Notes under the pieces: generated by a model
Databases searched by the model: none
What the model was told of the DNA's origin: nothing
The model's input: only the letters and a program-made list of their open reading frames with translations
Program-made: the position numbers and the translations under genes
Shown here: positions 7,797-40,689 of the stretch, one piece after another
Numbering within the stretch: the first letter of the stretch is position 1
Layout: each line of letters opens with the position of its first letter
Assembly: GCF_001677475.2 (NCBI RefSeq)
Contig: NZ_CP015229.1
From: Escherichia coli
GTDB lineage: Bacteria > Pseudomonadota > Gammaproteobacteria > Enterobacterales > Enterobacteriaceae
DNA: 64,000 nt
Direction: 5' to 3' (one strand)

Positions 7797-7797
<1 letters not shown>

Positions 7798-8863: not shown

Positions 8864-8864
<1 letters not shown>
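7797..8864 (+). CDS. hisB: Bifunctional histidinol-phosphatase / imidazoleglycerol-phosphate dehydratase HisB (start at [14 protein letters not shown])
   Basis: HAD motif DRDGTL at N-terminus and IGPD domain; operon context. Confidence 0.95.
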
Positions 8865-10942
<2,078 letters not shown>

Positions 10943-10949
<7 letters not shown>

Positions 10950-11651: not shown

Positions 11652-12632
11652 TTACTTCGCGTTGTAATTACGCAGAGCGTTACGCCCCAACACAATCCCC
11701 GCGCCAACCATGCCGCCCAGCAGCACCGCCAGAATCAAGGTAATTGCCTTTTTCGGACTATCGCGACGAATAGGTAACGTCGGTTTCATCACATAACGGT
11801 AAGCATGAATATCAAGATCATCAACTTTTAAGCTTTCGATATCCAGCAGGTTTTGACGAGTCTGATAGTAGTTTGGTGAGAACACCAACGGACGGGTCGC
11901 TTCATGTTTAATCATCGACTCCAGCGCTTCGCTACCCAAAAGGAACAACGTATCTTGCGTCACATCTTCAGTCTGCTGAACCTGTGGCTTTGTCACCTGC
12001 GCCTGATTCGCATACTGCAACGCTTCCTGAATCTGACGGATACGCAGATCTTTCTGCTCCTGCGCGACTACTTCCTGCGTTCTTAAAGAGTCCTGCAAGT
12101 TTTTCCGTCCCAGAGCAATGTTGTCTTTGAGATCCTTTTCTAGCTCTTGATTCACTTTATCATCAACTTGCTGAATGTATTGGGCCAACTTCATTTGTGC
12201 GCCCTCTGCAGTTTGCCCAACATAAGAAACAGTCAATGGTAATTGCTGGTTCTTAACAGAAGGTTCGATGGTAAGTTTTTCTGGTTCATCCTGATTATCC
12301 AGCGTTTCTGCTAATGCAGAGAAGGCAGAACTGAAGCGACCAATTAACGTCTCCTGCAAATCCGATACTTTCGGTGCAGCCTGACCATAGATAACATTCA
12401 TGGCATTGTTATAGCCAGCAATTTGCCCCACGTCGGGCTGAGTGATAATTGCTGTTGACGTCCATTTCTCCTTCGCAACTGCCAAATATCCAATAGCCAG
12501 GGCAATAGCCACAATGACGGAAATGATGATTGTCATCTTGCCACGCCACAACTGCACTAGTAAATCAATCAAATCAATCTGTTCTGGGTCATTATTTTGC
12601 CCAGAAACATTATTATTTTCTACTCTCATCAT
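11652..12632 (-). CDS. wzzB: O-antigen chain-length determinant WzzB (polysaccharide co-polymerase 1); start approximate (near MRVENNN)
   Basis: ORF translation with N- and C-terminal TM segments and coiled-coil periplasmic region; position between his and ugd. Confidence 0.85.
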   Translation of the reverse strand: MMRVENNNVSGQNNDPEQIDLIDLLVQLWRGKMTIIISVIVAIALAIGYLAVAKEKWTSTAIITQPDVGQIAGYNNAMNVIYGQAAPKVSDLQETLIGRFSSAFSALAETLDNQDEPEKLTIEPSVKNQQLPLTVSYVGQTAEGAQMKLAQYIQQVDDKVNQELEKDLKDNIALGRKNLQDSLRTQEVVAQEQKDLRIRQIQEALQYANQAQVTKPQVQQTEDVTQDTLFLLGSEALESMIKHEATRPLVFSPNYYQTRQNLLDIESLKVDDLDIHAYRYVMKPTLPIRRDSPKKAITLILAVLLGGMVGAGIVLGRNALRNYNAK

Positions 12633-12774
12633 TACCCTAACTGACGGAAATTTCCAAGTCCGCATAGTTTAGCGATAATCCTCGTGAATGCTATAGGATA
12701 AGTGATAAAAATAATGAATTGTTGCGTAAGTAACAAAAGACAATCAGGGCGTAAATAGCCCTGATAACAAGATG

Positions 12775-14189: not shown

Positions 14190-15596
14190 TTAATCCAGCC
14201 ATTCAGTATGGAACACACCTTCTTTATCAATGCGCTTATAAGTATGCGCACCGAAATAGTCACGCTGTGCCTGGATCAGGTTTGCAGGCAGAACTGCGGC
14301 GCGGTAGCTGTCATAATAGGCAACCGCAGCCGCGAAGGTCGGAACCGGGATACCGTTCTGTACTGCATAAGCAACGACATCACGCAGCGCCTGCTGGTAG
14401 TCATCGGCAATTTGCTTAAAGTACGGAGCCAGCAGCAGGTTAGCGATCTGTGGATTTTCGGCATATGCATCGGTGATTTTCTGCAGGAACTGCGCACGGA
14501 TGATGCAGCCAGCACGGAAAATCTTCGCGATTTCGCCGTAGTTCAGATCCCAGTTGTATTCTTCAGACGCAGCACGCAGCTGAGAGAAGCCCTGAGCGTA
14601 AGAAACGATTTTGCCCAGATACAGCGCACGGCGAACTTTTTCGATGAACTCAGCCTTGTCGCCTGCTGACTGAGCTTGCGGACCAGAGAGAACTTTAGAT
14701 GCGGCAACGCGCTGATCTTTCAGAGAAGAGATATAACGTGCAAACACAGACTCGGTAATCAGCGACAGCGGTTCTCCGAGATCCAGCGCGCTCTGGCTGG
14801 TCCATTTACCGGTACCTTTGTTAGCCGCTTCATCCAGGATCACATCAACCAAGTAGTTACCGTCTTCATCTTTTTTAGTGAAGATGTCTTTGGTGATGTC
14901 GATCAGGTAGCTGCTCAGTTCACCGTTATTCCACTCGGTAAAGGTCTGTGCCAGTTCTTCGTTGGTGAGGTTCAGGCCACCTTTAAGCAGAGAATAGGCT
15001 TCAGCAATCAGTTGCATATCACCGTATTCAATACCGTTGTGAACCATCTTCACATAGTGACCTGCACCATCGGCACCAATATAGGTAACGCATGGCTCCC
15101 CGTCTTCAGCTACTGCGGCGATTTTGGTCAGGATCGGTGCAACCAGTTCATAGGCTTCTTTCTGCCCACCAGGCATAATGGAAGGACCTTTCAGCGCACC
15201 TTCTTCACCGCCGGAAACACCGGTACCAATGAAGTTAAAACCTTCGGCAGAAAGCTCACGATTACGACGAATGGTGTCCTGGAAGAAGGTATTACCACCA
15301 TCAATAATGATGTCACCTTTATCGAGGTATGGCTTGAGGGAATCAATAGCAGCATCCGTGCCTGCACCTGCTTTAACCATTAACAGGATGCGACGAGGCG
15401 TTTCCAGAGATTCAACGAACTCTTTCACCGTATAGTAAGGAACCAGTTTTTTGCCTGGATTTTCGGCAATCACTTCTTCCGTCTTTTCACGGGAACGGTT
15501 GAAAATAGAGACGGTATAACCACGGCTTTCGATGTTAAGCGCAAGATTGCGCCCCATCACTGCCATACCGACTACGCCAATCTGTTGCTTTGACAT
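14190..15596 (-). CDS. gnd: 6-phosphogluconate dehydrogenase (decarboxylating) Gnd
   Basis: [21 protein letters not shown]... 468 aa; synteny. Confidence 0.95.
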
Positions 15597-15787: not shown

Positions 15788-17212
15788 TCAAGAAATTAAA
15801 GATATAATACTCCCAAGCACATTCGTAACATATTGCTTAGCCTGATTTTCATCACTGCCTTCAGCGTAACAACGGAGTTCAGGGGCATTTCCGGAAGGAC
15901 GGAGATGTATAATATCACCATTAGTTAAAATAAATCTTGCACCATCAGTTTCATCAATAGTGGAACAGGATAATGATTCATACCCTAATTTATTAAAGAA
16001 ATTATTAGGTGATGAAATGGCATTTTTTATAATTTGCTGACTTGACTCTGAAGGAAAGTTTTTCACTCTATCTGACCAAGTAAATCGCTGTGGAAGATTA
16101 TTAACCAGTTGAGAGATAGTACTATTGCGAGAAGCTATTAAGAGCATTAACGCTGGTAATACTGCATCTCGAGTAGGTAACGCATTTAATTCTTTGCCAT
16201 TAATTTGTAAATCGGAGGCAAGCAGAAAACCGCCATTAGCTTCAAAACCAGCGACTGAATCAAATTGTTTAGCAAGTTCTGAAAACGCTGCAATCACATA
16301 AGGAGAGCCAATTTTAGTCCGTTGTGTATTTGCAAATTTATTAGATTGTTCAATTGCTGTATTACAACTCACTGGAATAGCCAACGCCTTGATATTAAGT
16401 TCAATAGCCGTAAGTAATCCCAGAATATCGCCTCGTAGCCATTCACCATTTTCATCGGCAACTAAAGGGCGATCACCATCACCATCTGTTGAGAAAATTG
16501 CATCGAGATTGTATTTTTTAGACCACTCTCTTGCAAGTAGACGATCTTCTTCGCTAACTGCTTCCGTATCAATAGGAACGAACTCATCACTTCTACCGAG
16601 GGAGATGACCTCAGCACCCAATTGATTAAAAAGTGGAGCATATAAATCTCGTCCTGCACTAGAATGTTCATAGATCCCAATTCTCTTCCCCTTTAAAATA
16701 TCGGAATTAAAAAGAGAAACATAACGTTCTAGGTATGAATCCGCACCTTGAGTACTTGTTTCAAGATGAGGTAATACATCTACAGGAGAAAAAACATATT
16801 CACTATTTACTATTGCTAACTCATCCTCTTTTGTGATTTCACCATCTGGACGGTAAAATTTCAAACCATTACGGTCAAAAGGTATGTGACTACCGGTAAC
16901 CATTATGCAGGGGATGTTTTTCTGCATGGAATAATGAGCTAATGCAGGGGTCGGAATTACACCATGATATTCAACAGCGAACCCATGTTGTTTGATAGCG
17001 AACGCGCATGCCTGAGCAATTTCATAACTACTCGGGCGATTGTCAATGGCTAAAGCAACTTTATTAAAATTGTATTTGTCATCAATAACAGAAAGAAACG
17101 CATGACTGAAGGCTGCACAAACATCATGGGTAAAATCGATGACTAAACCACGAGCACCACTAGTGCCGAAAGCAATATTGCTATCGGTAATGATTTTGTT
17201 AGCATTTAACAT
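15788..17212 (-). CDS. O-antigen cluster phosphohexomutase (phosphomannomutase-like, divergent; TGSHIP and DGDGDR motifs)
   Basis: alpha-D-phosphohexomutase-like motifs in ORF translation; position downstream of manC; sequence clearly different from cps CpsG in this window. Confidence 0.65.
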   Translation of the reverse strand: MLNANKIITDSNIAFGTSGARGLVIDFTHDVCAAFSHAFLSVIDDKYNFNKVALAIDNRPSSYEIAQACAFAIKQHGFAVEYHGVIPTPALAHYSMQKNIPCIMVTGSHIPFDRNGLKFYRPDGEITKEDELAIVNSEYVFSPVDVLPHLETSTQGADSYLERYVSLFNSDILKGKRIGIYEHSSAGRDLYAPLFNQLGAEVISLGRSDEFVPIDTEAVSEEDRLLAREWSKKYNLDAIFSTDGDGDRPLVADENGEWLRGDILGLLTAIELNIKALAIPVSCNTAIEQSNKFANTQRTKIGSPYVIAAFSELAKQFDSVAGFEANGGFLLASDLQINGKELNALPTRDAVLPALMLLIASRNSTISQLVNNLPQRFTWSDRVKNFPSESSQQIIKNAISSPNNFFNKLGYESLSCSTIDETDGARFILTNGDIIHLRPSGNAPELRCYAEGSDENQAKQYVTNVLGSIISLIS

Positions 17213-17217
17213 GATGA

Positions 17218-17964
17218 TTACTTCTTAATAAATTGAGGAAGTTTGGATAGATTTTTATACGCTAAAGCTATTGGCCAGATAATACCATTCTGTTTCATAG
17301 CGCGAATATCTTCCATTGATTTATTGATCATGGAAGATGCTGAGCGATTGCTAATTCCACCAACACGCATTTTCACTAATACTTTTGGTAAGTAAGCTAT
17401 TGAAATACGCTGTTTTAAAATATAACGTAATAATGAGTCATAATCAGCAGATATTCGGTAATCTAATGAAAAACAACCAAACTCACTATAACAATCGCGT
17501 TTCATATAAAATGATGGGTGTGGCGGCATCCAACCTAGTTTCATCTTCAAACGGCTAAATGAGCCACTCTTCCATAATCTAATACGTTTAGTCGTATCAT
17601 TTTGGGCAACATACTCCAAATCACCATAAACAGCATCACACCCTGAACTTTCAAATGTTTTTACTATATCTGCAATAGCATCGTCATAAGCAAGTAAGTC
17701 ATCAGAGTGCAAAAATCCAATTATATCACCAGAAGCTGCTTGAATACCTTTATTCAGTGCATCATAAATACCATTGTCGGGTTCGCAAATGATTGTTGAA
17801 ACTCTTGTACATTTACTCTTGATTAGCTCTATTGTATTATCTTTCGATGCTCCATCTACAACTATATATTCAATATCTGAATGCGTTTGTTTTTCCAGAG
17901 AGAGTAATGTATCAAGAAGCGTTTTTTCACTATTATAAGTTGCTGTGATAATTGAAATCCGCAT
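17218..17964 (-). CDS. Glycosyltransferase family 2 (WcaE-like)
   Basis: N-terminal ISIITATYNSEKTL...VVDGASKDNT motif typical of GT2; O-antigen cluster context. Confidence 0.75.
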   Translation of the reverse strand: MRISIITATYNSEKTLLDTLLSLEKQTHSDIEYIVVDGASKDNTIELIKSKCTRVSTIICEPDNGIYDALNKGIQAASGDIIGFLHSDDLLAYDDAIADIVKTFESSGCDAVYGDLEYVAQNDTTKRIRLWKSGSFSRLKMKLGWMPPHPSFYMKRDCYSEFGCFSLDYRISADYDSLLRYILKQRISIAYLPKVLVKMRVGGISNRSASSMINKSMEDIRAMKQNGIIWPIALAYKNLSKLPQFIKK

Positions 17965-19370
17965 TAGTATCCAACTCCAGAAGAAGAAACTCTTATAACA
18001 TCATCCTCTTCCAAGTAGACTCCTGATCTAACCTCAATTATTTCAAGTGGGATCTTGCCAGGATTTTCAATGGCATGTGGAACACCAACAGGTATATATG
18101 TTGATTCATTTTCTGAAACAAGATAAGTTTTCTCCTCAAGATGAACTTTAGCTGTCCCCGAAACAACAATCCAATGTTCAGTACGATGGTAATGGATCTG
18201 CTTAGCGGTAATGTGACCCGGTAATACAATCACATGTTTAACCTGAAAGCGTTGCCCTTCAGCTATAGTGTCATGACTGCCCCAAGGACGAAAAATTTCC
18301 CGATGTTGTAAATATTCTGTTCGATTATTCTTTTTAAGCTGAGCTACGATGTTTTTAACTTGCTGAACTTTATCTTTATGAGCAACTAATACTGCATCTT
18401 TCGTTTCAACGACAACCAAATCCTTTACGCCCACGGCACCAATAAGTCTATGCTGCGAATAAAGATAACTATCTGTAGCATCCTCAACCAAAACATCACC
18501 ACGAATGGCATTGCCGCTTTGGTCTTTTGAACTTATTTCCCACAGCGCAGACCATGACCCAACATCACTCCATTGCGCATCCAATGGTACGACTACAGCT
18601 TCTGCTGTTTTTTCCATAACGGCATAGTCGATTGACTCTTCAGGGCAGCAAGAAAAAGAAGAATTATCCAAGCGGATAAAATCTAAATCTTGAGTCGAGG
18701 AAGCTAAGGATTGCTGACAACTCTCTAGAATATCTGGACGGAATTTTTTTAGTTCATCGATGAATACAGATGCTCTGAACATAAACATTCCACTATTCCA
18801 AAGATAACCGCCATCTGACAAATACCGCTGAGCTAATTCTAGCTCTGGCTTTTCAACAAAAGCTGCAACTTTATAACCTTGCCCACTAAGTGGATCACCT
18901 GACTTAATATAGCCATACCCTGTCTCTGGAGCTGTTGGAACAATGCCAAATGTGACCAACTTACCTTGCTGCGCAAACTCCTTCGCGGCCAAAACTGCTG
19001 TAATGAAACTATTCTCATCCTGAATTTCATGGTCAGCCGCAAGAACTAAAAGTATAGGATCCTCTCCACTTGCCGTTGCCTGAAGCGCTGCAAGGGCTAC
19101 AGCTGGTGCCGTATTGCGCCCAACAGGCTCAAGCAAAATCCCACTATGCTTTAAACCAACTTTACGTAATTGTTCAGCAACGATGAAACGATGTGATTCA
19201 TTACAAATGATCAAAGCAGGATTGTGTTCAACCTTTTCTAGCCGTCGCATAGTCTCTTGCAACATAGTTAAGCGGCTATTTAAAGACAGAAATTGTTTCG
19301 GATAAAGTGTACGTGAAAGAGGCCATAATCTGGTACCAGATCCACCGGCCATGACAACGGGAAGTAGCAT
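17964..19370 (-). CDS. manC: Mannose-1-phosphate guanylyltransferase / mannose-6-phosphate isomerase (ManC), O-antigen copy
   Basis: ORF translation closely parallels cps CpsB in this window ([19 protein letters not shown]... C-terminal cupin); AT-rich codon usage. Confidence 0.9.
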   Translation of the reverse strand: MLLPVVMAGGSGTRLWPLSRTLYPKQFLSLNSRLTMLQETMRRLEKVEHNPALIICNESHRFIVAEQLRKVGLKHSGILLEPVGRNTAPAVALAALQATASGEDPILLVLAADHEIQDENSFITAVLAAKEFAQQGKLVTFGIVPTAPETGYGYIKSGDPLSGQGYKVAAFVEKPELELAQRYLSDGGYLWNSGMFMFRASVFIDELKKFRPDILESCQQSLASSTQDLDFIRLDNSSFSCCPEESIDYAVMEKTAEAVVVPLDAQWSDVGSWSALWEISSKDQSGNAIRGDVLVEDATDSYLYSQHRLIGAVGVKDLVVVETKDAVLVAHKDKVQQVKNIVAQLKKNNRTEYLQHREIFRPWGSHDTIAEGQRFQVKHVIVLPGHITAKQIHYHRTEHWIVVSGTAKVHLEEKTYLVSENESTYIPVGVPHAIENPGKIPLEIIEVRSGVYLEEDDVIRVSSSGVGY

Positions 19371-19375
19371 ATCTA

Positions 19376-19837
19376 TTACCTTGATATAAAATAATTTTTG
19401 GTATATTGATGAACTGTAGTGCTATTAAGCAACGTTACTACATCAAACCACTTGTAGGAATTATGCTGAATCGTTGGTAGGCGAAGTTGCTGCGGATTAA
19501 TTTGAATTTCATATCCATGCACTACGTAGTGTGTAGAAAAATCTAGTTCAGAAAAATTGTCATTGTAAAAGTGTTCATACACACCAAGAAATATGGCCTC
19601 ACCAAGACTAGTTTGAACGCCTAACTCTTCATATGTGATCCTTTTAAAAGCATCCTCGAATGACTCGTCCTTAAAAATTCGCCCTCCAGGCACAAACCAA
19701 TAATTTTTTGCGGGGCGATTCAGGCGCTGCCCAAGCAGCGCCTCTCCTTTATCATTTCTAATTATGAGGTCAATCGAGATTAGAGGAGTATGCTTGACTA
19801 TTGTTTTAAATAACTCATATTCTAATCTCTTTTTCAT
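19376..19837 (-). CDS. gmm: GDP-mannose mannosyl hydrolase (NUDIX), O-antigen copy
   Basis: NUDIX-type protein parallel to cps Gmm/WcaH in this window (YWFVPGGR motif). Confidence 0.85.
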   Translation of the reverse strand: MKKRLEYELFKTIVKHTPLISIDLIIRNDKGEALLGQRLNRPAKNYWFVPGGRIFKDESFEDAFKRITYEELGVQTSLGEAIFLGVYEHFYNDNFSELDFSTHYVVHGYEIQINPQQLRLPTIQHNSYKWFDVVTLLNSTTVHQYTKNYFISR

Positions 19838-19839
19838 AA

Positions 19840-20805
19840 CTATCCCCGAAAAGAATCAATATTCTCAAGAAACCATTGATATGTTAATGATAGACCTTCA
19901 TGTAAATTATAGCGATGTAGCCAGCCCAAGTTTTTGAGTCGGGTAACGTCCATAAGCTTTCGCGGGGTGCCATCTGGTTTGGTCGCGTCAAAAACAATTT
20001 TTCCTTGATAACCCACTACAGAAGCCATTGTTTCAGCCATTTCACGTATAGAACAATCCACCCCCGTACCAACATTAATATGAGATAACATTGGTTGTGT
20101 ATTTTGTTGATAGATTGTGTCCTCTAACTCCATCACATGAACCGAGGCAGCAGCCATATCATCAACATATAAAAACTCACGCATCGGTGTTCCCGTGCCC
20201 CAGACAATAACTTCTTGTGCACCACTTTCTTTTGCCTCATGGAATCTACGCATAAGCGCCGGAATAACATGGGAGTTTTCAGGATGGAAGTTATCATTCG
20301 AACCATAAAGATTAGTCGGCATTACACTTCTATAATCGCGACCATATTGACGATTATAAGACTCACATAATTTTATGCCCGCAATCTTAGCAATTGCGTA
20401 TGGCTCATTAGTTGGCTCAAGTATGCCCGTCAAAAGTGCAGACTCTTTCATCGGCTGCTCTGCAAATTTTGGATAAATGCAGCTAGAGCCTAAAAAAAGT
20501 AATTTTTGAATTCCAACCTTGTGAGCTGAATGTATAATATTACTCTCAATCATGAGATTCTGATAAATGAATTCTGCTGGAAATGTATTATTGGCATAAA
20601 TACCACCTACTTTTGCCGCAGCAAGATAAACCTGATCAACCCTCTCTCTCTCAAAAAATGCCTCAACATCCTTCTGCACGGTCAGATCGAGTTCTTTGTG
20701 TGTTTTAACCACTAACTCGATATCATCACGCAGCGATAATTGTCGGCAAATAGCAGAGCCAACCATGCCCTGGTGCCCAGCAACATATACTCTTTTCTTT
20801 ATCAT
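19840..20805 (-). CDS. fcl: GDP-L-fucose synthase (GDP-4-keto-6-deoxymannose 3,5-epimerase/4-reductase), O-antigen copy
   Basis: 321 aa, colinear with cps Fcl in this window ([12 protein letters not shown]...). Confidence 0.9.
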
Positions 20806-20808
20806 GTA

Positions 20809-21942
20809 TTAACGCTCCAGAGAAACCGAAACATCATAACCATGGCTTTTAAGAAGTGCATGTTGTTTCGCTTTTAACAAATCGCTAGCAACCATTTCTG
20901 CACACATCTCTTCAACTGTAATCTCTGGTTCCCAGCCTAATAGATTTTTTGCTTTTGCAGGGTCACCTAAGAGTGTTTCAACTTCAGCAGGACGGAAATA
21001 ACGAGGATCAACCCGAACTATAACGTCTCCAACATTTACACCAATAGCACAATCGGAAACTTTATTAACTACTGTGGCTATCTCATCTACACCCTCACCA
21101 GTGAATTCAAGTTCAAGTCCGACTTCTTTAGCAGCCATACGGACAAATTCACGCACAGATATCTGTTTACCTGTGGCGATGACAAAATCCTCTGGATGAT
21201 CTTGCTGAAGCATCATCCATTGCATGCGAACATAATCTTTAGCGTGTCCCCAGTCACGCAACGAATCCAGATTACCCAAATATAAGCATTGTTCGATCCC
21301 CTGAGAAATATTAGCTATTGCACGAGTAATTTTACGAGTAACAAAAGTTTCTCCACGGCGTGGCGATTCATGGTTAAAAAGAATACCATTACAAGCATAT
21401 ATACCATAAGATTCACGGTAGTTAACTGTTATCCAGTAAGCATACATCTTAGCTACAGCATAAGGCGAACGCGGGTAGAATGGAGTTGTTTCACGCTGAG
21501 GAATCTCTTGCACTAAACCAAAAAGTTCTGAAGTAGATGCTTGATAGAAACGTGTTTTTTTCTCCAGCCCACAGATTCGTATTGCTTCTAATAAACGTAA
21601 TGTACCTATTGCATCTACATCTGCTGTATATTCTGGTGACTCGAATGATACTGCGACATGGGATTGTGCACCAAGGTTATAAATTTCATCCGGTTGAATT
21701 TCTTGGATTAAACGGATCAGATTCGATGTATCTGTTAAATCCCCATAGTGTAAAATAAAATTAGGCTCATCAACGAATCGTGATTGATATATATGATCAA
21801 TTCTATCAGTGTTAAATGACGATGCTCGGCGTTTTATACCATGTACTTCATAACCTTTTTCAATAAGAAATTCAGCAAGATATGAACCATCTTGTCCAGT
21901 TACGCCTGTGATAAATGCAACTTTTTTATTCATTTTAATCAT
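20809..21942 (-). CDS. gmd: GDP-mannose 4,6-dehydratase, O-antigen copy (start may be at MNKK, 21930)
   Basis: Colinear with cps Gmd in this window ([37 protein letters not shown]). Confidence 0.9.
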
Positions 21943-21951
21943 GTTATGTTC

Positions 21952-22983
21952 CTAAATATTCAACTCATTATAAACTTTAATCGTTTCATTAACACATTTT
22001 GACCATGAAAATTTTTGCGCCTGCAGTAAACCTCTTTCGATCATAACATTTCTTTTTAAATTAACTAATTCTAAAGCTTCTTTTAACGTAAACTCATTAA
22101 TATCATCAATATAAATAGGCGCATTCCCCCCTACTTCCGGCAACGAGGATGTGTTTGCACAAATAACTGGACATCCGGCCTGCATAGCTTCTAGGACAGG
22201 TATTCCAAACCCCTCATAACTGGAAGGGTAAACAAGTGCATATGCAGTATTATACTGTATATTTAAATCTTCATTACTCAAAAATGTAAAATGTTCATAT
22301 CTATTTTTTAAATATTTTTCAAGGAGTTCTCTTTCATATTTTTTAAGCGAGCCTCCGCCTACAATTGTAAGCTTTAAGCCATGTAATTTCCCTACAGCTT
22401 TGACTGCAAGAACGAAATTTTTATAACCTTCTCTGGCACCGACAAACAAAACTGAATTATTTACTCTCATATCAGATATGTTAGAAATATGTTTATATGA
22501 TGGGGATACACCATTATAAATCACTCTAATTTTATCTTCACTAATTGGACAGTACTTAAGTAAATCTCTAGCAGTGTTGTTTGAAATACAAATTACGATA
22601 TCACTATTCTTGATAGCATGATATTTTTGAAGAGAATGAATAAATTTTGACATTCCTCCCCTGTATTTTTCATAGGTAAAATCATGAACAGTTGTAACAT
22701 TTTTCACATTCAAATTAGGATTTTTATGAACTCGATAATAACTTGAGTGTAAAACCCTAGTTTTAATATCACTTACATTTCTATATCTTTCTAAAATTCT
22801 TGGCTCACGATATTGCAACTTTAAGTCACTTGTATCAAACTCAAATTCTTTATTTTTATACAATAGAATTTCAGCTTGGTAATTTGATTTCACCATTCCT
22901 TGGATCAACTCATTAAAGTATACACTTATTCCACCAAATGATTGGAGATTATAAATAATCCCATCGATAGTTACCATTATCAT
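21952..22983 (-). CDS. Glycosyltransferase family 1 (GT4-like)
   Basis: C-terminal EGFGIPVLEAMQAGCPVI motif typical of GT-B retaining glycosyltransferases. Confidence 0.75.
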   Translation of the reverse strand: MIMVTIDGIIYNLQSFGGISVYFNELIQGMVKSNYQAEILLYKNKEFEFDTSDLKLQYREPRILERYRNVSDIKTRVLHSSYYRVHKNPNLNVKNVTTVHDFTYEKYRGGMSKFIHSLQKYHAIKNSDIVICISNNTARDLLKYCPISEDKIRVIYNGVSPSYKHISNISDMRVNNSVLFVGAREGYKNFVLAVKAVGKLHGLKLTIVGGGSLKKYERELLEKYLKNRYEHFTFLSNEDLNIQYNTAYALVYPSSYEGFGIPVLEAMQAGCPVICANTSSLPEVGGNAPIYIDDINEFTLKEALELVNLKRNVMIERGLLQAQKFSWSKCVNETIKVYNELNI

Positions 22984-24236
22984 CGCCCTCGCAAGGTAAT
23001 ACGTTCGATTAGAACGAACAATATCAAAAAGAAGATCAGTAACAATACATATGCAGGCCCAGAAAAATAAGTTCCAAATGAAGGTGAAATGAGAATTATA
23101 GAAAGCAAAAAATAGGATGCAGAGTTCGTAATTACTTTTGCATTAAACATTTTAAGCTTAGCAAAAATATAGCCATAAAAGATATTCATAGGTGAAAGAA
23201 AAGTTAAAATGACCAGTCCAACATATCCATAATCAACAAAATTATCCATCCCTTTTGAAAAAGCAGGTGTATGCCCCGACTCTGCAGCTCCTGGATAATA
23301 GATTTCATTTACATGCAGAAATCCATATACAAAAGGTTTATCAGGAAACAAACCTCTCGGTATATAAGACCAAAACTGGCTGAAATAGACTGTGCCATTG
23401 AAAAATTTAACCACACCTTTATCAATATCTTGCAGCAAATAAATACTGTTTTGATACTGGTCAAAATAAGACAATACTACATCGACATTCATATTTCCAA
23501 TAGCTAAAAATAAATTATAGAGAATGGCACACGCTGCCAGAGGTGTAACTAAAATCAGGCCAAATTTTAGAAATCTAGATTTATTAAGACTTAACACTGC
23601 AAGATAAAAAATCGCAAATGAAAGAATAAAGGTTTTCGATCCAAGAAAAAAAACCAAGGTACAATAGAATATCGCGCATAAAAATAATTTTATTTCCGAG
23701 CGTAAAGCCAACGCTCTAGAAAAATAAGATACTGAAAGCATACTTAAAGAAAAGGCATACAAAAAACCATTACCTTCTCGATAGTTTTGATAACCATCCC
23801 TGGGATTCGTCAACCATCCAGAAATACCTATTTCTGACTTTGAAGAAAGAAGAACAAATAATGTAACAAACAGAACCAATGTAATATTTGATATTCTTTT
23901 TAATTTTGTATGCGAAATTAAGCAAGTTAAATAGCTCTCTCTATTTTTGAATATTATATTAAAAATAAAATAAAATAAAATTATAGATAAAACACCCACA
24001 AAAGAGTATATGTTATATATGAATAAAGCCTCATTATAATATTGATTTAACGCAAAGTCTGAACCATAGAAAAGAGGGGCCAGAATATTTTCCAATAGAA
24101 AAACCGGGAATAAAATAATGGCGCAAATGGTAAAGGGATTGATAATTGTAAGTCTTAGCGTTTTCGTCGCTAATAAAGAAAAAGAAAAATATAGTACTAC
24201 AGCGAGTGTAACATTTAAACAATATATTATTACCAC
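22980..24236 (-). CDS. wzy: O-antigen polymerase Wzy (candidate)
   Basis: 418-aa highly hydrophobic multi-TM protein with no catalytic motifs of other families, very AT-rich, located in O-antigen cluster. Confidence 0.6.
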   Translation of the reverse strand: MVIIYCLNVTLAVVLYFSFSLLATKTLRLTIINPFTICAIILFPVFLLENILAPLFYGSDFALNQYYNEALFIYNIYSFVGVLSIILFYFIFNIIFKNRESYLTCLISHTKLKRISNITLVLFVTLFVLLSSKSEIGISGWLTNPRDGYQNYREGNGFLYAFSLSMLSVSYFSRALALRSEIKLFLCAIFYCTLVFFLGSKTFILSFAIFYLAVLSLNKSRFLKFGLILVTPLAACAILYNLFLAIGNMNVDVVLSYFDQYQNSIYLLQDIDKGVVKFFNGTVYFSQFWSYIPRGLFPDKPFVYGFLHVNEIYYPGAAESGHTPAFSKGMDNFVDYGYVGLVILTFLSPMNIFYGYIFAKLKMFNAKVITNSASYFLLSIILISPSFGTYFSGPAYVLLLIFFLILFVLIERITLRGR

Positions 24237-24246
24237 ATCCTCTCCC

Positions 24247-25056
24247 CTATCTTAAACCGAATAATTTGCGCTTAATTGATTTTGTTTTTTGATATAATGT
24301 TTGAGGAACAATCATTTTAAATAAAACTTGCAATGTATTATAGACAGCAAATTTTATTTTGTATGATAAGGGCATATGAATATTATTTTTAGCTAGAATG
24401 TAAGCAATTTCTTTCTTGACTAATTTTTTATTAGACTCATTTGAACTTACACCCGAAGCATCCATTATGGATACAGGAAAATTCACATAATGCAACGTAG
24501 ATGGATCTATTGTTCTTATCATAAAATCACTATCAGCAGCAATTTTTAGTGTTGTATCAAAGCGATTAGCATTATCTTTAAAAAAGCTAGAATGCTGGAA
24601 AGTACCCTGATGAGGAGGAAGTGAAGGCCGACCACATTCCCACTTTTTCTGTATTTTTCCGTAAACTCCAACTATATTATCTTTATCACTAAAATATACA
24701 TCACCATATATAGTTGTTGCACTCATATTTTCGTGAATGGCATTTGCTATTTTTGAAAGAGTATTATTTTCATAGAATGTATCGCCAGCTCCCATAAAAA
24801 TAACCCAATCGCCATTTATGTGAGGAAGAGCTTTATTCCAAGCGTCGTATATTCCTTGATCAGATTCGCATAAAAAATAATCTATAATATCAATATATCT
24901 ATAAATATATTCTAGTGTTGATTTGTTAGAGTTGCCGTCTATAACAATCCATTGAATATTACAATAATTTTGATTTTTAATAGATTCTGCAGTCTTGCAG
25001 AAATCTTCCTCACAATTATACGTCGATGTTATTATAGTAATCTGTAAGCCATTCAT
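24247..25056 (-). CDS. Glycosyltransferase family 2
   Basis: ITIITSTYNCEEDF...VIDGNSNKST N-terminal GT2 signature. Confidence 0.75.
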   Translation of the reverse strand: MNGLQITIITSTYNCEEDFCKTAESIKNQNYCNIQWIVIDGNSNKSTLEYIYRYIDIIDYFLCESDQGIYDAWNKALPHINGDWVIFMGAGDTFYENNTLSKIANAIHENMSATTIYGDVYFSDKDNIVGVYGKIQKKWECGRPSLPPHQGTFQHSSFFKDNANRFDTTLKIAADSDFMIRTIDPSTLHYVNFPVSIMDASGVSSNESNKKLVKKEIAYILAKNNIHMPLSYKIKFAVYNTLQVLFKMIVPQTLYQKTKSIKRKLFGLR

Positions 25057-25062
25057 CTTAAC

Positions 25063-25773
25063 TCACTTATTTTTCATAGCAATATATTTTAATCTTAATT
25101 CTTTAATTAATGTCTTTACTTTACTATCAGTGGAATACTCAATATTAAACGTGCCAGAGACTCCTCTTATTTTGGGAATAGTTGTTCCAATAACTCCTTT
25201 TAATTTATTATTTTTAATTTGCTCAAAAAAAATGTGTTCTAAATAAACACCATCAAGGTCACGCACAGATTTATAAGAATTAGCAAAAAAGTCCCAATAT
25301 ATTTTTTTATTTACAACATAAAATCTTGTATCAATCATATTTTCATTCAGAAAAGGAACTGGTATAAAAAAAGCTTTACCATTGAATGCATTTATACATT
25401 GCTTATAATTATCGACGTATAGTTTTGATGTTATTTTTGCAAAACTTTCAGCATTAGACAAATAGCGGCTATTCATTAATGCATACTCAATTATTTCACC
25501 CTCTCCGTAACCTTTACCATAAGATTGAACACTTTCTATATCATTTTTGAAATGTATTATCTCGATCGAATCTTTATTAAGTATTTGTTTATCATTATGA
25601 ATATCTTTCGTCAAATCATAATCACTACCATCACATATTACTATAGAATCAGCATTCTTTGACAACTCTCTTATCGCTTTCAATGTATGTAATAATCTTG
25701 AATTTTCATCAGAAAGATTTGTAAGAGGAGCATTAGGTGAGATACAAGAAGTCACTAATACTGGGATTTTCAT
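25063..25773 (-). CDS. Hypothetical O-antigen cluster protein, ~236 aa (possible glycosyltransferase of unassigned family); start ATG overlaps wzx stop (ATGA)
   Basis: ORF with ATGA coupling to wzx; contains DGSDYD (DxD-like) motif; no family recognised by eye. Confidence 0.4.
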   Translation of the reverse strand: MKIPVLVTSCISPNAPLTNLSDENSRLLHTLKAIRELSKNADSIVICDGSDYDLTKDIHNDKQILNKDSIEIIHFKNDIESVQSYGKGYGEGEIIEYALMNSRYLSNAESFAKITSKLYVDNYKQCINAFNGKAFFIPVPFLNENMIDTRFYVVNKKIYWDFFANSYKSVRDLDGVYLEHIFFEQIKNNKLKGVIGTTIPKIRGVSGTFNIEYSTDSKVKTLIKELRLKYIAMKNK

Positions 25774-27014
25774 TTTTTCTTTTCCAGCCTCAACGAAATT
25801 AACATTAGTATAAAATAATCGACGGTGACTCTTGCGCTCCAAGCATAAGCCACACCTGCTACAGAAAAATACATAATTGAAAAATATAAAACCAGCAGAT
25901 ATGGAATACATTCAACAAGATGAATGAGCCCCGTAATATTTGCATAACCTTTCGATTGGATTTGAGCAAATGGAACTTGAGCAAGAGAGTTGAATACAAA
26001 ACCTACTAATAATATTTGAAATATATAAGGACTCTCAGTGCTATATTGTTTTCCAAGCCATAAAGTTATAATATCACCAGCCTTCAAAGAAAACATAATA
26101 GCTATAACTATACTAGTTACACTTATTAATAACGTAGCCTCTTTTATTATTTTTCTCCGCTCATCTTTTGTATTATTCTTGCATAGAGCAGGAAAAACTG
26201 TCCTTGCTATAGTTGTCGGTAATATAAGTAACTTTGAAATTGCATCTGCAGGAGCAATATATAACGAAGCTTTAGCGGGGCCAACTGCATTTGATAAGAT
26301 AAATCGATCAATATTTGTAAGCAATGGGTTAATTATACTACTAATACTCGCCCATCCTCCAAAACTTAATAGTGCTTTTGTTTTACTTAGACTAAAATCC
26401 ATTGTAAGCCTATTATTTCTAAAAACAAAGAACACGCTTAAAAGAGCACCAACTATTCTCGCAATCACCAATCCCAAAGTAGCATTAAGCAAACCAACAT
26501 TTCCATGAATGAAAATAACTGGTAGTAGCGCAGTTAACACACCTGTAATTGTTTTTTGTACATTCAATAATTTGAACTTTTCATATCCTTCTAATATCCC
26601 CCAACAAACCATATTAAGAAGATAAAATGGCAGACAGTAGGATAAAATACTTATAGCATATGCAACACTTTCAGTTTGTTCCGGACCACTAATTAAGGAT
26701 GCAATCTTATGGTCGCAGTAATAAAAAATTACGGCTACAACAACACCAATAGATAATGTTAATAAAAATGATGTTGTAATTATTTGACTGGTTGCCTTTT
26801 TGTCGTTTTTATTTAATGATATTTCACGCACAACGGCTCGGGAAAGTCCGAGATCAAATATACTTGCGTATCCAACTATTGTAAAAAACATTAAAAAAAA
26901 GCCAAAGTTAGTTATTCCTAACTCCCTTGCCAAATACCCCATCGCAGGTATTGACAATAAAGTTGGGATTGCATACCCAACCAAATTTATTAAACTATTT
27001 ATTTTAATACTCAT
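25770..27014 (-). CDS. wzx: O-antigen flippase Wzx (polysaccharide transporter family)
   Basis: 414-aa protein with ~12 predicted TM segments, located immediately after rmlC. Confidence 0.7.
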   Translation of the reverse strand: MSIKINSLINLVGYAIPTLLSIPAMGYLARELGITNFGFFLMFFTIVGYASIFDLGLSRAVVREISLNKNDKKATSQIITTSFLLTLSIGVVVAVIFYYCDHKIASLISGPEQTESVAYAISILSYCLPFYLLNMVCWGILEGYEKFKLLNVQKTITGVLTALLPVIFIHGNVGLLNATLGLVIARIVGALLSVFFVFRNNRLTMDFSLSKTKALLSFGGWASISSIINPLLTNIDRFILSNAVGPAKASLYIAPADAISKLLILPTTIARTVFPALCKNNTKDERRKIIKEATLLISVTSIVIAIMFSLKAGDIITLWLGKQYSTESPYIFQILLVGFVFNSLAQVPFAQIQSKGYANITGLIHLVECIPYLLVLYFSIMYFSVAGVAYAWSARVTVDYFILMLISLRLEKKK

Positions 27015-27031
27015 TTTTTAATTATCTTTTG

Positions 27032-27574
27032 TCAATAATTATTTTGTATAAATGGAGTGCCCAAACAATCTTTTTGTGATAAAAGAGGTTCTTTGTATAA
27101 TTGCCAATCTATGTTAAGTAAAGCATCATTCCAAATGATACATTTCTCATGTTCTTTTGAGTAAAAATTATTGGTCTTATACAATATTTCTGAACCTTCT
27201 TCTTTTACATAAAAACCATGTGCAAATCCCTCAGGGATCCACAACTGGCGCTTATTCTCAGCAGATAAATTCACCCCAACCCACTTGCCAAAAGTAGGTG
27301 ACGATTTACGAATATCAACCGCAACATCAAAAACCTCACCAACAACGCAACGTACCAATTTCCCTTGCGCATAAGGTTCTAACTGATAATGCAGCCCGCG
27401 TAAAACACCTTTACTAGACTTCGAATGGTTATCCTGGACAAATTCAACCTTACGTCCTACAGCTTCTTCGAATACTTTCTGATTAAAGCTTTCCATAAAG
27501 AAACCACGCTCATCACCAAAAACTTTCGGCTCGAAAATTAACACATCAGGAATTTCTGTTTTAATTACGTTCAT
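27032..27574 (-). CDS. rmlC: dTDP-4-dehydrorhamnose 3,5-epimerase RmlC
   Basis: 180-aa cupin; rmlBDAC order. Confidence 0.9.
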   Translation of the reverse strand: MNVIKTEIPDVLIFEPKVFGDERGFFMESFNQKVFEEAVGRKVEFVQDNHSKSSKGVLRGLHYQLEPYAQGKLVRCVVGEVFDVAVDIRKSSPTFGKWVGVNLSAENKRQLWIPEGFAHGFYVKEEGSEILYKTNNFYSKEHEKCIIWNDALLNIDWQLYKEPLLSQKDCLGTPFIQNNY

Positions 27575-27578
27575 TTTA

Positions 27579-28457
27579 TTAATAACCTTTAATCATTTTC
27601 AGCAGATACTGTCCATAAGCATTTTTTTTCAGCGGCTCCGCTAATGCTTTCACCTGTTCAGCATCAATAAACCCTTTACGGTAAGCAATTTCTTCTGGGC
27701 AGGAAACCTTTAGTCCCTGGCGCTCTTCAATGGTGGCAATGAAGTTGCTTGCTTCAATAAGACTCTGATGTGTCCCCGTATCCAGCCATGCATAACCACG
27801 CCCCATCATGGCAACGGATAAACGCCCCTGTTCCATATAAATACGGTTAATATCGGTAATTTCCAGTTCACCACGGGCAGAAGGCTTAAGGTTTTTCGCC
27901 ATTTCGACAACGTCGTTATCATAGAAATAAAGCCCGGTTACCGCATAATTACTTTTTGGTTGTAGCGGTTTTTCTTCCAGGCAGATCGCCGTACCGTTTT
28001 TATCAAACTCAACGACACCGTAGCGTTCAGGATCATTAACGTGATAGGCAAATACCGTTGCACCACTTTCTTTGTTAACAGCGACATCCATTAACTTCGG
28101 CAGATCATGACCGTAGAAGATATTATCACCAAGAACCAAAGCACAATCATCACCACCGATAAACTCTTCACCGATAATAAACGCCTGCGCAAGCCCATCT
28201 GGAGTCGGTTGCACTTTGTACTGAAGATTTAGCCCCCACTGGCTACCGTCACCCAGCAGTTGTTGAAAACGAGGAGTATCCTGTGGCGTACTAATAATCA
28301 GAATATCGCGAATACCCGCCAACATCAGTGTAGAGAGCGGGTAATAGATCATCGGCTTATCATAAATAGGTAATAGCTGTTTACTGACAGCCATAGTCAC
28401 AGGATAAAGACGTGTACCAGAACCACCCGCTAAAATAATACCTTTACGCGTTTTCAT
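27579..28457 (-). CDS. rmlA: Glucose-1-phosphate thymidylyltransferase RmlA
   Basis: [19 protein letters not shown] nucleotidyltransferase N-terminus; 292 aa. Confidence 0.95.
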
Positions 28458-28514
28458 TTCATCATTCCTTTTAATTCATCTTGCTCCACCATCACGAACA
28501 AGATGCAAAAACTA

Positions 28515-29414
28515 TTAAATTGCTGTAGTCGTAAATAATTCGTTGAGCATTCGTTTCACACCAACCTGCCACTCAGGCAAGACAAGCGCAAAGTTCTGCT
28601 GAAATTTTTCTGTATTAAGGCGAGAGTTATGTGGACGACGAGCTGGTGTAGGATAGGCTGTTGTTGGTACTGCGTTGAGCTTGTTGAGTGCAAGGGGAAT
28701 ACCTGCTTTGCGCGCCTCTTCAAAAACCAGCGCAGCATAATCGTGCCAGGTTGTGGTACCACTGGCTACCAGATGGTACAAACCTGCGACTTCCGGTTTA
28801 TTCAGTGCCACACGAATAACATGTGCCGTACAATCAGCCAGCAGCTCAGCACCTGTTGGCGCACCAAATTGATCATTTATCACAGCCAGTTCTTCGCGCT
28901 CTTTTGCCAGACGCAACATCGTTTTGGCGAAGTTATTTCCTTTACCTGCGTATACCCAGCTGGTACGGAAAATAAGATGCTTCGCGCAATGTTCCTGTAA
29001 CGCTTTTTCTCCGGCTAACTTGGTTTCACCGTAAACATTTAGCGGTGCGGTTGCATCCGTCTCCAGCCATGGCGTGTCGCCATTTCCAGGGAAGACGTAG
29101 TCAGTTGAGTAATGAATTACCCAAGCCCCAACTTCATTAGCCGCTTTTGCAATTGATTCAACGCTAGTCGCATTGAGTAATTGTGCAAATTCGGGTTCTG
29201 ACTCAGCCTTATCTACTGCGGTGTGAGCCGCAGCATTAACAATAACATCAGGTCGAATTCTTTTGACTGTTTCAGCTACACCTTCAGGATTACTAAAATC
29301 ACCACAATAATCAGTGGAGTGAACATCAAGAGCAATCAAATTACCCAAAGGTGCCAGAGCACGCTGTAGTTCCCAACCTACCTGCCCTGTTTTGCCGAAA
29401 AGGAGGATATTCAT
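28515..29414 (-). CDS. rmlD: dTDP-4-dehydrorhamnose reductase RmlD
   Basis: [20 protein letters not shown]; 299 aa. Confidence 0.95.
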   Translation of the reverse strand: MNILLFGKTGQVGWELQRALAPLGNLIALDVHSTDYCGDFSNPEGVAETVKRIRPDVIVNAAAHTAVDKAESEPEFAQLLNATSVESIAKAANEVGAWVIHYSTDYVFPGNGDTPWLETDATAPLNVYGETKLAGEKALQEHCAKHLIFRTSWVYAGKGNNFAKTMLRLAKEREELAVINDQFGAPTGAELLADCTAHVIRVALNKPEVAGLYHLVASGTTTWHDYAALVFEEARKAGIPLALNKLNAVPTTAYPTPARRPHNSRLNTEKFQQNFALVLPEWQVGVKRMLNELFTTTAI

Positions 29415-30499
29415 TACTGGCGGCCCTCATAGTTCTGTGCAATCCACGATTGATAGGCACCACTTTTCACATTATCAACCCATTTTGTATTGGACAGGTA
29501 CCATTCCACTGTCTTCCGAATCCCGCTCTCAAACGTTTCCTGCGGTTTCCAGCCCAATTCGCGGCTAATCTTCTCAGCATCAATCGCATAACGGCGATCG
29601 TGTCCCGGGCGGTCGGCAACATAAGTAATTTGCTCACGATAAGATTTCTCTTTCGGTACAATCTCATCCAGCAAATCACAAATAGTAAGCACTACATCGA
29701 TGTTTTTCTTTTCGTTGTGTCCGCCAATATTATAGGTTTCGCCTGCTTTACCTTCAGTAACGACTGTATATAACGCTCGAGCATGATCCTCGACATACAA
29801 CCAATCGCGAATTTGATCCCCTTTACCATAAATAGGTAATGCTTTACCTTCCAGAGCATTCAGAATAACCAATGGAATCAATTTTTCCGGGAAATGATAA
29901 GGGCCATAATTGTTAGAGCAATTAGTCACAATGGTCGGTAAACCATAGGTACGTTTCCACGCGCGGACTAAATGATCGCTGGATGCTTTGGATGCGGAAT
30001 AAGGGCTGCTTGGTGCGTAAGCTGTTGTCTCAGTAAATAAGGGTAATTTTTCTTTATTATTTACTTCGTCAGGATGAGGCAAATCACCATAGACTTCGTC
30101 AGTAGAAATATGATGAAAACGGAAGCTATTTTTCTTGTCGCTATCAAGAGCAGACCAGTAATTGCGAGCGGCTTCCAAAAGGACATAAGTACCAACAATA
30201 TTGGTTTCAATAAATGCCGCAGGGCCTGTAATTGAACGATCCACATGGCTTTCAGCAGCCAGGTGCATCACTGCATCCGGCTGATGCAGAGCAAAAATCC
30301 GCGCCATTGCAGCAGCATCGCAAATATCCGCATGTTCAAAAACATAGCGTTCAGAATCAGAAACATCAGCAAGTGATTCCAGGTTTCCGGCGTACGTTAA
30401 TTTATCGACATTAACAACACTATCCTGCGTATTATTTATAATGTGACGAACTACAGCAGAACCAATAAATCCTGCGCCACCAGTAACAAGTATTTTCAC
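29414..30499 (-). CDS. rmlB: dTDP-glucose 4,6-dehydratase RmlB
   Basis: [20 protein letters not shown]; 361 aa SDR. Confidence 0.95.
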
Positions 30500-30573: not shown

Positions 30574-30612
30574 CACGCTACCGCCCCTGGCTTTACAGCT
30601 ACCAGAGCACTG
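30574..30612 (-). promoter_or_regulatory. JUMPstart element containing ops (GGCGGTAGCGTG) upstream of the O-antigen operon
   Basis: Minus-strand read: cagtgctctggtagctgtaaagccaggggcggtagcgtg, matching the remembered 39-bp JUMPstart consensus. Confidence 0.9.
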
Positions 30613-31764: not shown

Positions 31765-31938
31765 TATTTCATCCACCTGTAAAATGGTTGCTGAATTATA
31801 GCTTGTTCGATTTTTTTCGCCAGCATCAATTACCCTGAATTGATTACTGAATTACTTTTGATGTTACGCCGCTTCGTTGTGGATTGCAGTAGCATTGTTC
31901 CTAAGTATGGCTCCATTTTTCCAGGAATGGTCGCAAAT

Positions 31939-35841: not shown

Positions 35842-35902
35842 TTTTTCCTCATAAATTTGATGCCAGGTGAGGCTGTGTTTGTTTTGTTCGTTGCCGCTTT
35901 TT

Positions 35903-36090: not shown

Positions 36091-36116
36091 CCATTGCCGG
36101 AACCGAAAACAACAAC

Positions 36117-37595: not shown

Positions 37596-37596
37596 A

Positions 37597-40688: not shown

Positions 40689-40689
40689 T

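Follow-up and report, generated by a model that had tools for sequence, protein, structure and literature searches.

An Escherichia coli O36-type O-antigen gene cluster with a GT-A-like protein as the probable fourth glycosyltransferase

Between gnd and galF, the window (the whole 64,000-nucleotide stretch of Escherichia coli DNA that was analysed) carries 15 consecutive open reading frames, all on the minus strand, which span positions 15788-30499 (14,712 bp) and agree in their coordinates with the 14.7-kb minus-strand operon proposed in a preliminary description of this DNA. The features of the locus are listed below in order of position, with model scores given against the respective cut-offs.

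11652..12665, minus strand: wzzB, O-antigen chain-length regulator (NF012015, 607 bits vs 267, residues 13-337)
14190-15596: gnd, flank of the cluster
15788..17212, minus strand: manB-type phosphohexomutase of 474 aa, at the distal end of the operon (RefSeq 'phosphomannomutase')
17218..17964, minus strand: wfeY, GT2-family putative alpha-1,3-L-fucosyltransferase, L-Fuc onto GlcNAc-PP-Und (from the literature and WrtF homology)
17964..19370, minus strand: manC, mannose-1-phosphate guanylyltransferase / mannose-6-phosphate isomerase (TIGR01479, 745 bits vs 373)
19376..19837, minus strand: gmm, GDP-mannose mannosyl hydrolase of the Nudix type (NF011963, 203 bits vs 146)
19840..20805, minus strand: fcl, GDP-L-fucose synthase (NF047922, 546 bits vs 500)
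20809..21942, minus strand: gmd (TIGR01472, 582 bits vs 415)
21952..22983, minus strand: GT4-family (Pfam Glycos_transf_1, retaining GT-B) glycosyltransferase (generic GT4 matches; RefSeq 'glycosyltransferase family 4 protein', 341 aa)
22980..24236, minus strand: wzy, O36 O-antigen polymerase of 418 aa, starting with GTG at 24236 (exact protein GenBank ANO89814, 'O36 family O-antigen polymerase')
24247..25056, minus strand: GT2-family (inverting, GT-A) glycosyltransferase, 269 aa (generic GT2 matches; RefSeq 'glycosyltransferase family 2 protein')
25063..25773, minus strand: conserved 236-aa protein, folded like GT-A enzymes (nucleotide-diphospho-sugar transferase fold) and proposed as the fourth glycosyltransferase for the O36 unit
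25770..27014, minus strand: wzx, flippase for the O36 O unit, a polytopic membrane protein of 414 aa (exact protein GenBank ANO89817, 'O36 family O-antigen flippase')
27032..27574, minus strand: rmlC (rfbC), dTDP-4-dehydrorhamnose 3,5-epimerase (TIGR01221, 277 bits vs 156)
27579..28457, minus strand: rmlA (rfbA), glucose-1-phosphate thymidylyltransferase (NF012024, 675 bits vs 588)
28515..29414, minus strand: rmlD (rfbD), dTDP-4-dehydrorhamnose reductase (NF007440, 655 bits vs 308)
29414..30499, minus strand: rmlB (rfbB), dTDP-glucose 4,6-dehydratase, 361 aa, GTG start (NF007490, 795 bits vs 649)
30574..30612, minus strand: JUMPstart RNA element including ops (Rfam RF01707, 60 bits vs a gathering score of 35)
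30871-31776 (open reading frame bounds): galF, the other flank of the cluster

The identities originally proposed for rmlBDAC, wzx, gmd, fcl, gmm and manC are borne out by NCBIfam models, Wzx matching MOP-flippase models below their cut-offs, and the flanking gene products Gnd, GalF, Ugd, WzzB and WcaM all score above the curated cut-offs. The four RmlABCD enzymes, ManC, Gmd and Fcl are all full length and exceed these cut-offs; both predicted nucleotide-sugar pathways appear present and intact in the models and the open reading frame map, with no pseudogene among the rml, gmd and fcl genes of the window. RmlA, RmlB, RmlC and RmlD would together produce dTDP-L-rhamnose, while GDP-L-fucose would be formed by ManB, ManC, Gmd and Fcl, with Gmm as an accessory Nudix hydrolase. 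The cluster Gmd shares 79% amino acid identity with the colanic-acid Gmd in the window. The ManB-type protein is a four-domain member of the PGM/PMM family, yet it falls under every NCBIfam cut-off and shares only 21.6% identity with the CpsG of the window; it is named phosphomannomutase in the literature as in RefSeq. Comparison with RefSeq places the start of gmd probably at 21933 and that of the GT4 gene probably at 22977.

At the head of the operon, the ops sequence GGCGGTAG, found by motif scan and read in the sequence at 30578-30585, lies about 80 nt upstream of rmlB, and the JUMPstart/ops element is, as judged from its sequence, the RfaH-dependent antitermination signal of the operon. 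Simple promoter and terminator scans at both operon ends returned nothing above shuffled expectation. The wzzB gene, which is intact, lies outside 15788-30499 yet belongs to the O-antigen pathway.

Hydrophobicity analysis indicates that the glycosyltransferases of the cluster are soluble, whereas Wzx and Wzy are polytopic. Wzx has nine strongly hydrophobic segments and shares 97% identity with the O36 allele that occurs most often; Wzy has nine hydrophobic segments and a large hydrophilic loop, shares 99% identity with a second O36 Wzy of 418 aa, and matches TIGR04370 weakly (only 27.6 bits vs a cut-off of 40). No open reading frame for a wzm/wzt ABC transporter is found in 15788-30499. Since a MOP-type Wzx, a polytopic Wzy and WzzB are present and wzm/wzt are absent, the cluster is predicted from its gene content to be of the ordinary Wzx/Wzy-dependent O-antigen type.

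The GC content is 0.28-0.33 across the cluster centre, from wzx through the GT4 gene, 0.34-0.47 for the rml and the man/fuc genes, 0.50-0.56 for gnd, galF and the colanic-acid genes, and 0.51-0.57 for the flanks as a whole, in line with the earlier observation that the cluster is AT-rich relative to its surroundings. A polysaccharide cluster of Buttiauxella noackiae is fully collinear with that of the window, in the order wcaM, galF, rmlBDAC, wzx, the 236-aa homolog, GT2, wzy, GT4, gmd, fcl, gmm, manC, GT2 and manB, and has the same central GC dip, but its proteins share only 50-89% identity with those of the window (Wzx 55%, Wzy 61%, the 236-aa protein 50%). The horizontal origin that had been suggested is supported by the low GC content, by this collinearity and by the mosaic pattern of identities.

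The serogroup had been left open in the preliminary description, and the comparison of wzx and wzy with annotated genomes identifies it as O36. In a set of 5,426 complete E. coli genomes, the wzx-wzy block recurs in 8, with 97.9-99.5% nucleotide identity; each of the eight is annotated with 'O36 family' wzx/wzy, and in these genomes the whole 15.3 kb is collinear and 95.9-98.5% identical. The exact Wzx, Wzy, glycosyltransferase and ManB proteins of the window are deposited in GenBank under O36 family names (ANO89807-ANO89817). The O36 label is a genotypic one, derived from the names given in RefSeq/GenBank and from the match to alleles that bear such names. The cluster is already known, as a copy of the E. 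coli O36 O-antigen gene cluster, whose record, together with the O36 structure, was published in 2014 for the type strain H502a (AB811613; Perepelov et al., Carbohydr Res 390:46). The galF-gnd location, the 15 genes and their order are all alike in the window and the published cluster, as judged through other O36 genomes. The region is very probably an intact O36 cluster, transcribed as one RfaH/JUMPstart operon and directing the synthesis of the O36 pentasaccharide through the Wzx/Wzy pathway.

A different or new serogroup that shares with O36 only the rml and GDP-fucose modules is conceivable in principle, as other E. coli clusters, such as that of MDK6L1, share about 65% of the locus around a different centre; the shared part, at about 91% identity, consists of rmlBDAC and of gmd through manB. 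In a gene-by-gene comparison, moreover, rmlBDAC of the window is only 87-96% identical to three other O36 genomes. However, the serotype-specific centre (wzx, the 236-aa gene, GT2, wzy and GT4) is 97.7-99.8% identical per gene to O36 genomes, which largely refutes this reading, and the exact proteins bear O36 names in GenBank; another serogroup is therefore extremely improbable. The block from wzx to manB is 97.7-100% identical at the nucleotide level to other O36 genomes, and the divergence of the rml genes is consistent with replacement of the rml module of the window by recombination. It is somewhat less far-fetched, though still improbable, that the strain has the O36 genotype but displays no O36 antigen (rough or altered LPS), through a defect in wecA, waaL or rfaH outside the window or through a subtle inactivating substitution. 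O36 clusters do decay elsewhere: in E06, gmd is cut by ISKpn26 and wzzB has an internal stop, and wzy has deletions of 1-3 bases in isolate 23, Ec1119 and SCU-301. Some serogroups with complete clusters are rough, according to a review. Against this, the 15 cluster genes of the window are all intact, as are its wzzB and JUMPstart element; gmd and wzy are undamaged, unlike in some complete O36 genomes, and the 418-aa Wzy sequence recurs unchanged on 46 contigs in public data.

Titles and review statements in the literature describe the O36 repeat as a pentasaccharide that bears a side branch of two residues, which fits the tetra- or pentasaccharide first predicted. The cluster contains no initiating phosphoglycosyltransferase in the open reading frame map of 15788-30499; because of this, and because the literature links Fuc to GlcNAc, the WecA-type initiation proposed earlier fits. 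The glycosyltransferase encoded between manC and manB in O36, O41, O156, O159 and O168 is WfeY, to which the linkage alpha-L-Fuc-(1->3)-D-GlcNAc has been assigned in the literature (PMC10606467). According to the literature, the arrangement gmd-fcl-gmm-manC-wfeY-manB and this linkage are common to O36, O41, O156, O159, O168, SD2019180 and S. dysenteriae type 4, whereas wzx, wzy and the other glycosyltransferases of the latter six differ from those of O36, by description. L-Fuc is thus present in the matched serogroup, according to the literature, and the fucose part of the proposed composition stands; the L-rhamnose part rests on rmlBDAC, and L-Rha in the O36 unit we infer from these intact genes and from the expectation raised by the title of Perepelov et al. 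2014, no statement on it being found in the titles and review statements consulted.

Among solved structures, WfeY comes closest to that of WrtF, a GT2 fucosyltransferase from Rhizobium tropici (PDB 9omh), at an E-value of 6e-23 over about 210 residues, and by sequence it groups with the WrtF/WbdO-like fucosyltransferases of family GT2. The equivalents of Asp66, His142 and Asp167 of WrtF are conserved in WfeY (EPD, H and AD), but the 'DxD' site reads HSDD in WfeY and GADD in WrtF, and the equivalent of Asn143 is Pro. The linkage formed by WrtF is alpha-(1->4), and that of WfeY is alpha-(1->3) by the literature assignment. The 269-aa GT2 protein shows N-terminal similarity to WrtF (E-value 6e-10). 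The two GT2-like proteins and the GT4-like protein match generic NCBIfam models only; the gene initially called 'GT1' does encode a glycosyltransferase, but the label does not hold, as Pfam Glycos_transf_1 corresponds to CAZy GT4. In the proposed assembly, WecA, encoded elsewhere, would start the unit by transferring GlcNAc-P to undecaprenyl phosphate, and WfeY would add alpha-L-Fuc to O-3 of GlcNAc. The transfer of the last three residues would fall to the second GT2 enzyme, to the GT4 enzyme and, most probably, to the GT-A-like protein of 236 aa, an assignment of enzymes to linkages that we infer from the gene content. The unit would then be flipped by Wzx, polymerised by Wzy to a chain length set by WzzB, and ligated to the core by WaaL.

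The 236-aa gene starts with the ATG at 25773, overlapping the wzx stop; the 282-aa version (25063-25911) of the 'unknown' open reading frame is a longest-frame artefact. Sequence searches of Pfam, NCBIfam and the PDB gave nothing significant for the protein; the GT2 profile PF00535 matched at E = 0.47, which is not significant, and hhalign against the GT2 proteins of the cluster gave a probability of 8%, with only the IVICDGS segment aligned. The protein forms a single Rossmann-like alpha/beta/alpha fold that can be superimposed on GT-A enzymes, and we are confident that this fold is GT-A-like. The DxD after beta-4 is absent, and K113-x-T115-x-K117 lies at its expected position. As a pentasaccharide needs four glycosyltransferases after WecA and three others are present, the 236-aa protein is probably the fourth.

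It is unlikely, though not negligibly so, that the protein is instead nucleotidyltransferase-like, or another transferase for a non-sugar substituent, with one of the recognised glycosyltransferases being bifunctional. The G-x-G-x-R loop that sugar nucleotidyltransferases carry at the N-terminus is missing from the 236-aa protein, and a non-glycosyltransferase role would leave only three of the required enzymes. Some of its relatives in AFDB are fused to a GT1/GT4 domain, the protein and its homologs are always positioned among glycosyltransferase and wzx/wzy genes, and the literature text consulted on O36 mentions no non-sugar substituent. That the 236-aa protein is a glycosyltransferase may tentatively be extended to a wider proposal, which we consider possible but rather doubtful: it could represent a widespread family of DxD-less, GT-A-fold glycosyltransferases, with neither a Pfam model nor prior biochemistry, that forms one O36 linkage, possibly that of the side branch, independently of metal. 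In this family, K-x-T-x-K replaces DxD, and CDGS, GKGYGEGE, DTRF and E179 are invariant. In unrelated bacteria, members of the family again occur next to gmd/fcl genes, which hints at a connection with glycans that contain fucose. The 236-aa protein is the only poorly understood component of the cluster; with a tractable O36 system, its linkage could be assigned.

Beyond correct annotation, the value of the locus is small; it allows the strain to be assigned to O36 by in silico typing. Reports on Shiga-toxin-producing E. coli include this serogroup, often in combination with stx2g. The window provides a clean, undamaged reference copy of the O36 cluster, at a time when PGAP calls wzy a pseudogene in all complete O36 genomes whose annotation was inspected. 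This 'frameshifted' flag was found in all six annotated genomes inspected among the eight complete O36 genomes, and on intact wzy frames of 1,257 nt it looks like a reference artefact. A pseudogene reading of wzy in the window is rejected, as the gene is one uninterrupted open reading frame and the identical 418-aa protein has been accepted in GenBank.

Judged from its sequence, the locus between gnd and galF is an O-antigen cluster that has been described before, that of serogroup O36, with a standard Wzx/Wzy pathway. Typing by wzx and wzy, the check proposed in the preliminary description, returned O36: the wzy-to-wzx block (22980-27014) has a full-length match in only 8 of 5,426 complete E. 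coli genomes (97.9-99.5% identity), all eight of which carry the annotations "O36 family O-antigen flippase" and "O36 family O-antigen polymerase", and the entire 15.3-kb locus is collinear with the same eight genomes at 95.9-98.5% identity. Exact-sequence look-up retrieved the GenBank proteins of Wzx (ANO89817) and Wzy (ANO89814), both named O36 family, together with those of a 236-aa protein (ANO89816), a GT2 protein (ANO89815), WfeY (ANO89808), and ManB (ANO89807). Compared with other O36 alleles, the Wzx of the window shows 97% identity to the commonest one (526 contigs), and its Wzy shows 99% identity to a different O36 polymerase of 418 aa. H502a (O36:K-:H9; GenBank AB811613) is the type strain of the serogroup. 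The original finding is real and its interpretation sound, and the locus itself is already known; the one remaining point with some novelty concerns the 236-aa protein, which is predicted to be GT-A-like.

The ORF listing of the window bears out a 14.7-kb minus-strand operon, with the same 15 adjoining ORFs at 15788-30499 (14,712 bp), flanked by gnd (14190-15596) and galF (ORF at 30871-31776, with a probable true start at 31764, because GalF models align from residue 5). RmlB, RmlD, RmlA, RmlC, Gmd, Fcl, Gmm, and ManC score above the curated NCBIfam cut-offs, as do the flanking Gnd, Ugd, WzzB, GalF, and WcaM, and Wzx matches MOP-flippase models, in agreement with the identities first given to these genes. 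Wzy matches the generic repeat-unit-polymerase model weakly (27.6 bits; cut-off 40), and its gene starts with a GTG at 24236, preceded by a GGAG Shine-Dalgarno sequence. The AT-richness noticed by eye is confirmed by the GC profile, which is lowest from wzx through the GT4 gene (0.28-0.33), intermediate in the sugar-pathway genes of the cluster (0.34-0.47), and highest in gnd, galF, and the colanic-acid genes (0.50-0.56). Family searches found two GT2-like proteins and one GT4-like protein (Pfam Glycos_transf_1); the last had been called GT1, correctly as a glycosyltransferase, but its family is GT4.

17218-17964, minus strand, wfeY; closest solved relative WrtF, a GT2-family GT-A fucosyltransferase (E 6e-23)
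21952-22983, minus strand, GT4 glycosyltransferase gene
24247-25056, minus strand, second GT2 gene

The structure and gene cluster of O36 have been published (Perepelov et al. 2014), and the title of Mandal 2015 gives the repeat as a pentasaccharide, which agrees with the predicted tetra- or pentasaccharide; the predicted WecA-type initiation also agrees with the GlcNAc reported for O36. According to the literature, the unit has a two-residue side branch, a feature of few E. coli O units. The predicted fucose is accounted for by alpha-L-Fuc-(1->3)-D-GlcNAc, which PMC10606467 reports for O36, O41, O156, O159, and O168, crediting the linkage to wfeY, a glycosyltransferase gene between manC and manB that is common to these five serogroups. 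A statement of the full O36 composition was not found in the accessible literature text, and the predicted rhamnose is supported only by the intact rmlBDAC genes. WfeY retains the equivalents of WrtF Asp66, His142, and Asp167, with HSDD at the "DxD" site. GT2 enzymes invert, so that GDP-beta-L-Fuc would yield an alpha-L-fucoside, which fits the linkage reported for WfeY. The cluster "manB" (15788-17212, 474 aa) encodes a PGM/PMM-superfamily mutase that falls below every NCBIfam cut-off, its best match being an archaeal GlmM-type model; it shares only 21.6% identity with CpsG of the colanic-acid genes (39127-40545) and therefore belongs to a different mutase lineage, and phosphomannomutase activity seems to have been attributed to it on the basis of context.

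As a WecA-started pentasaccharide needs four glycosyltransferases, the 236-aa protein is the candidate fourth. This protein had been listed as unknown; it is present, but the 282-aa ORF starting at 25911 is ruled out as the gene, since the ATG at 25773 (minus strand) overlaps the wzx TGA and both the RefSeq and GenBank models have 236 aa. The protein has no Pfam or NCBIfam match (PF00535 E = 0.47) and no sequence relative in the PDB, and its 246 homologs are all unnamed. The family has the invariant positions C47-D-G-S50, G86-K-G-Y-G-E-G-E93, K113/T115/K117, D148-T-R-F, and E179. With hhalign, only the IVICDGS segment aligned with the cluster GT2s (IVVDGAS), at a probability of 8%.

The AlphaFold2 model (pLDDT 96, pTM 0.93) places the TarI/IspD cytidylyltransferases and KfiA at the top Foldseek ranks. 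The protein lacks the glycine-rich G-x-G-x-R loop that nucleotidyltransferases have. The CDGS strand corresponds to the nucleotide-binding "DDGS" strand of GT2 enzymes, and K-x-T-x-K occupies the GT-A DxD position, from which we infer that the protein may contact the diphosphate independently of metal. Its AFDB50 relatives (TM-scores 0.8-0.93) occur in Proteobacteria, Bacteroidota, Firmicutes, and Chlorobi and are auto-labelled "GT2-like" or "uncharacterized", two of them being fused to a GT1/GT4 domain. The protein thus very probably belongs to an uncatalogued, GT-A-like family of glycosyltransferases; a rival reading, which we regard as unlikely, is that it transfers something other than a sugar. 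On two freshwater metagenome contigs (L008 and L009, 2819-7768), a 40%-identical homolog adjoins a GT10 fucosyltransferase and genes resembling gmd and fcl, although the genes are arranged differently; this is a hint that the protein is repeatedly associated with fucose glycans.

The genes from wzx to manB (15788-27014) are 97.7-100% identical per gene to those of other O36 strains, whereas rmlBDAC (27032-30499) reach only 87-96%; gnd and galF are 90-96% and 96-97% identical. The cluster is therefore mosaic, and an exchange of the rml module by recombination, which is well known between O-antigen clusters, fits this pattern. Other E. coli O-antigen clusters, such as that of MDK6L1 (NZ_CP081324), have both sugar modules (rmlBDAC and gmd to manB) in common with the window at about 90% identity, around a different centre. 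The wzx, wzy, and glycosyltransferase centre of MDK6L1 is unnamed; this cluster may represent an OgN-type genotype, because its RefSeq flippase carries no serogroup name. Two Buttiauxella noackiae-type contigs (L010 and L011) carry the same 15 genes in a fully collinear order (galF, rmlBDAC, wzx, the 236-aa homolog, GT2, wzy, GT4, gmd, fcl, gmm, manC, GT2, and manB); their proteins are 50-89% identical to those of O36, and the central GC dip is the same. This collinearity and GC dip support an origin outside E. coli, or in an ancient shared pool, and Buttiauxella may make an O36-like polysaccharide. The window also carries the GDP-Fuc genes of colanic acid, and identity between these paralogs and the O-cluster proteins is 79% for Gmd, 73% for Fcl, 50% for Gmm, and 59% for ManC.

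No gene of the window is disrupted, and this includes the rml, gmd, and fcl genes, whose decay to pseudogenes would have contradicted the predicted composition. In the closest O36 relative, E. coli E06 (L001, NZ_CM143910), an IS5-like element, ISKpn26, interrupts gmd (8631-10954) and wzzB has an internal stop (1-451), so that E06 probably cannot make the O36 antigen. The annotation was examined in six of the eight complete O36 genomes (L001 and L003-L007), and in every one RefSeq/PGAP flags wzy as "frameshifted". By alignment, the window, E06, and 2014C-3075 have the same uninterrupted 1,257-nt ORF; as GenBank accepts the 418-aa Wzy, the flag on intact copies seems to be an artefact of the reference protein. 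In isolate 23, by contrast, two single nucleotides are truly deleted, both in T runs, and wzy is also shortened in Ec1119 (1,255 nt) and SCU-301 (1,254 nt, with an internal stop); across these three genomes, the real T-run deletions amount to 1-3 bases. Overall, the flags likely reflect in part this artefact and in part homopolymer error or real decay.

Three flanking stretches (1-9000, 33400-45400, and 57000-64000) have best matches of 98.4%, 97.0%, and 98.3% among the 5,426 complete RefSeq E. coli genomes; none reaches 99%. The E. coli lineage of the host seems to be poorly sampled.

Simple promoter and terminator scans of the operon were uninformative. A JUMPstart element lies about 80 nt upstream of rmlB, and Rfam located further RNA elements in the window:

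30574-30612, minus strand, JUMPstart with the ops octamer GGCGGTAG (Rfam RF01707, 60 bits versus 35; also pattern search and sequence reading)
55029-55066, second JUMPstart, heading the colanic-acid operon
40502-40551, algC RNA motif at the 5' end of cpsG
35961-36031, REP-derived naRNA4 between wcaK and wzxC
4339-4462, his operon leader
1525-1599, sRNA STnc240

The REP-derived naRNA4 accounts for about 36 BLAST places per genome.
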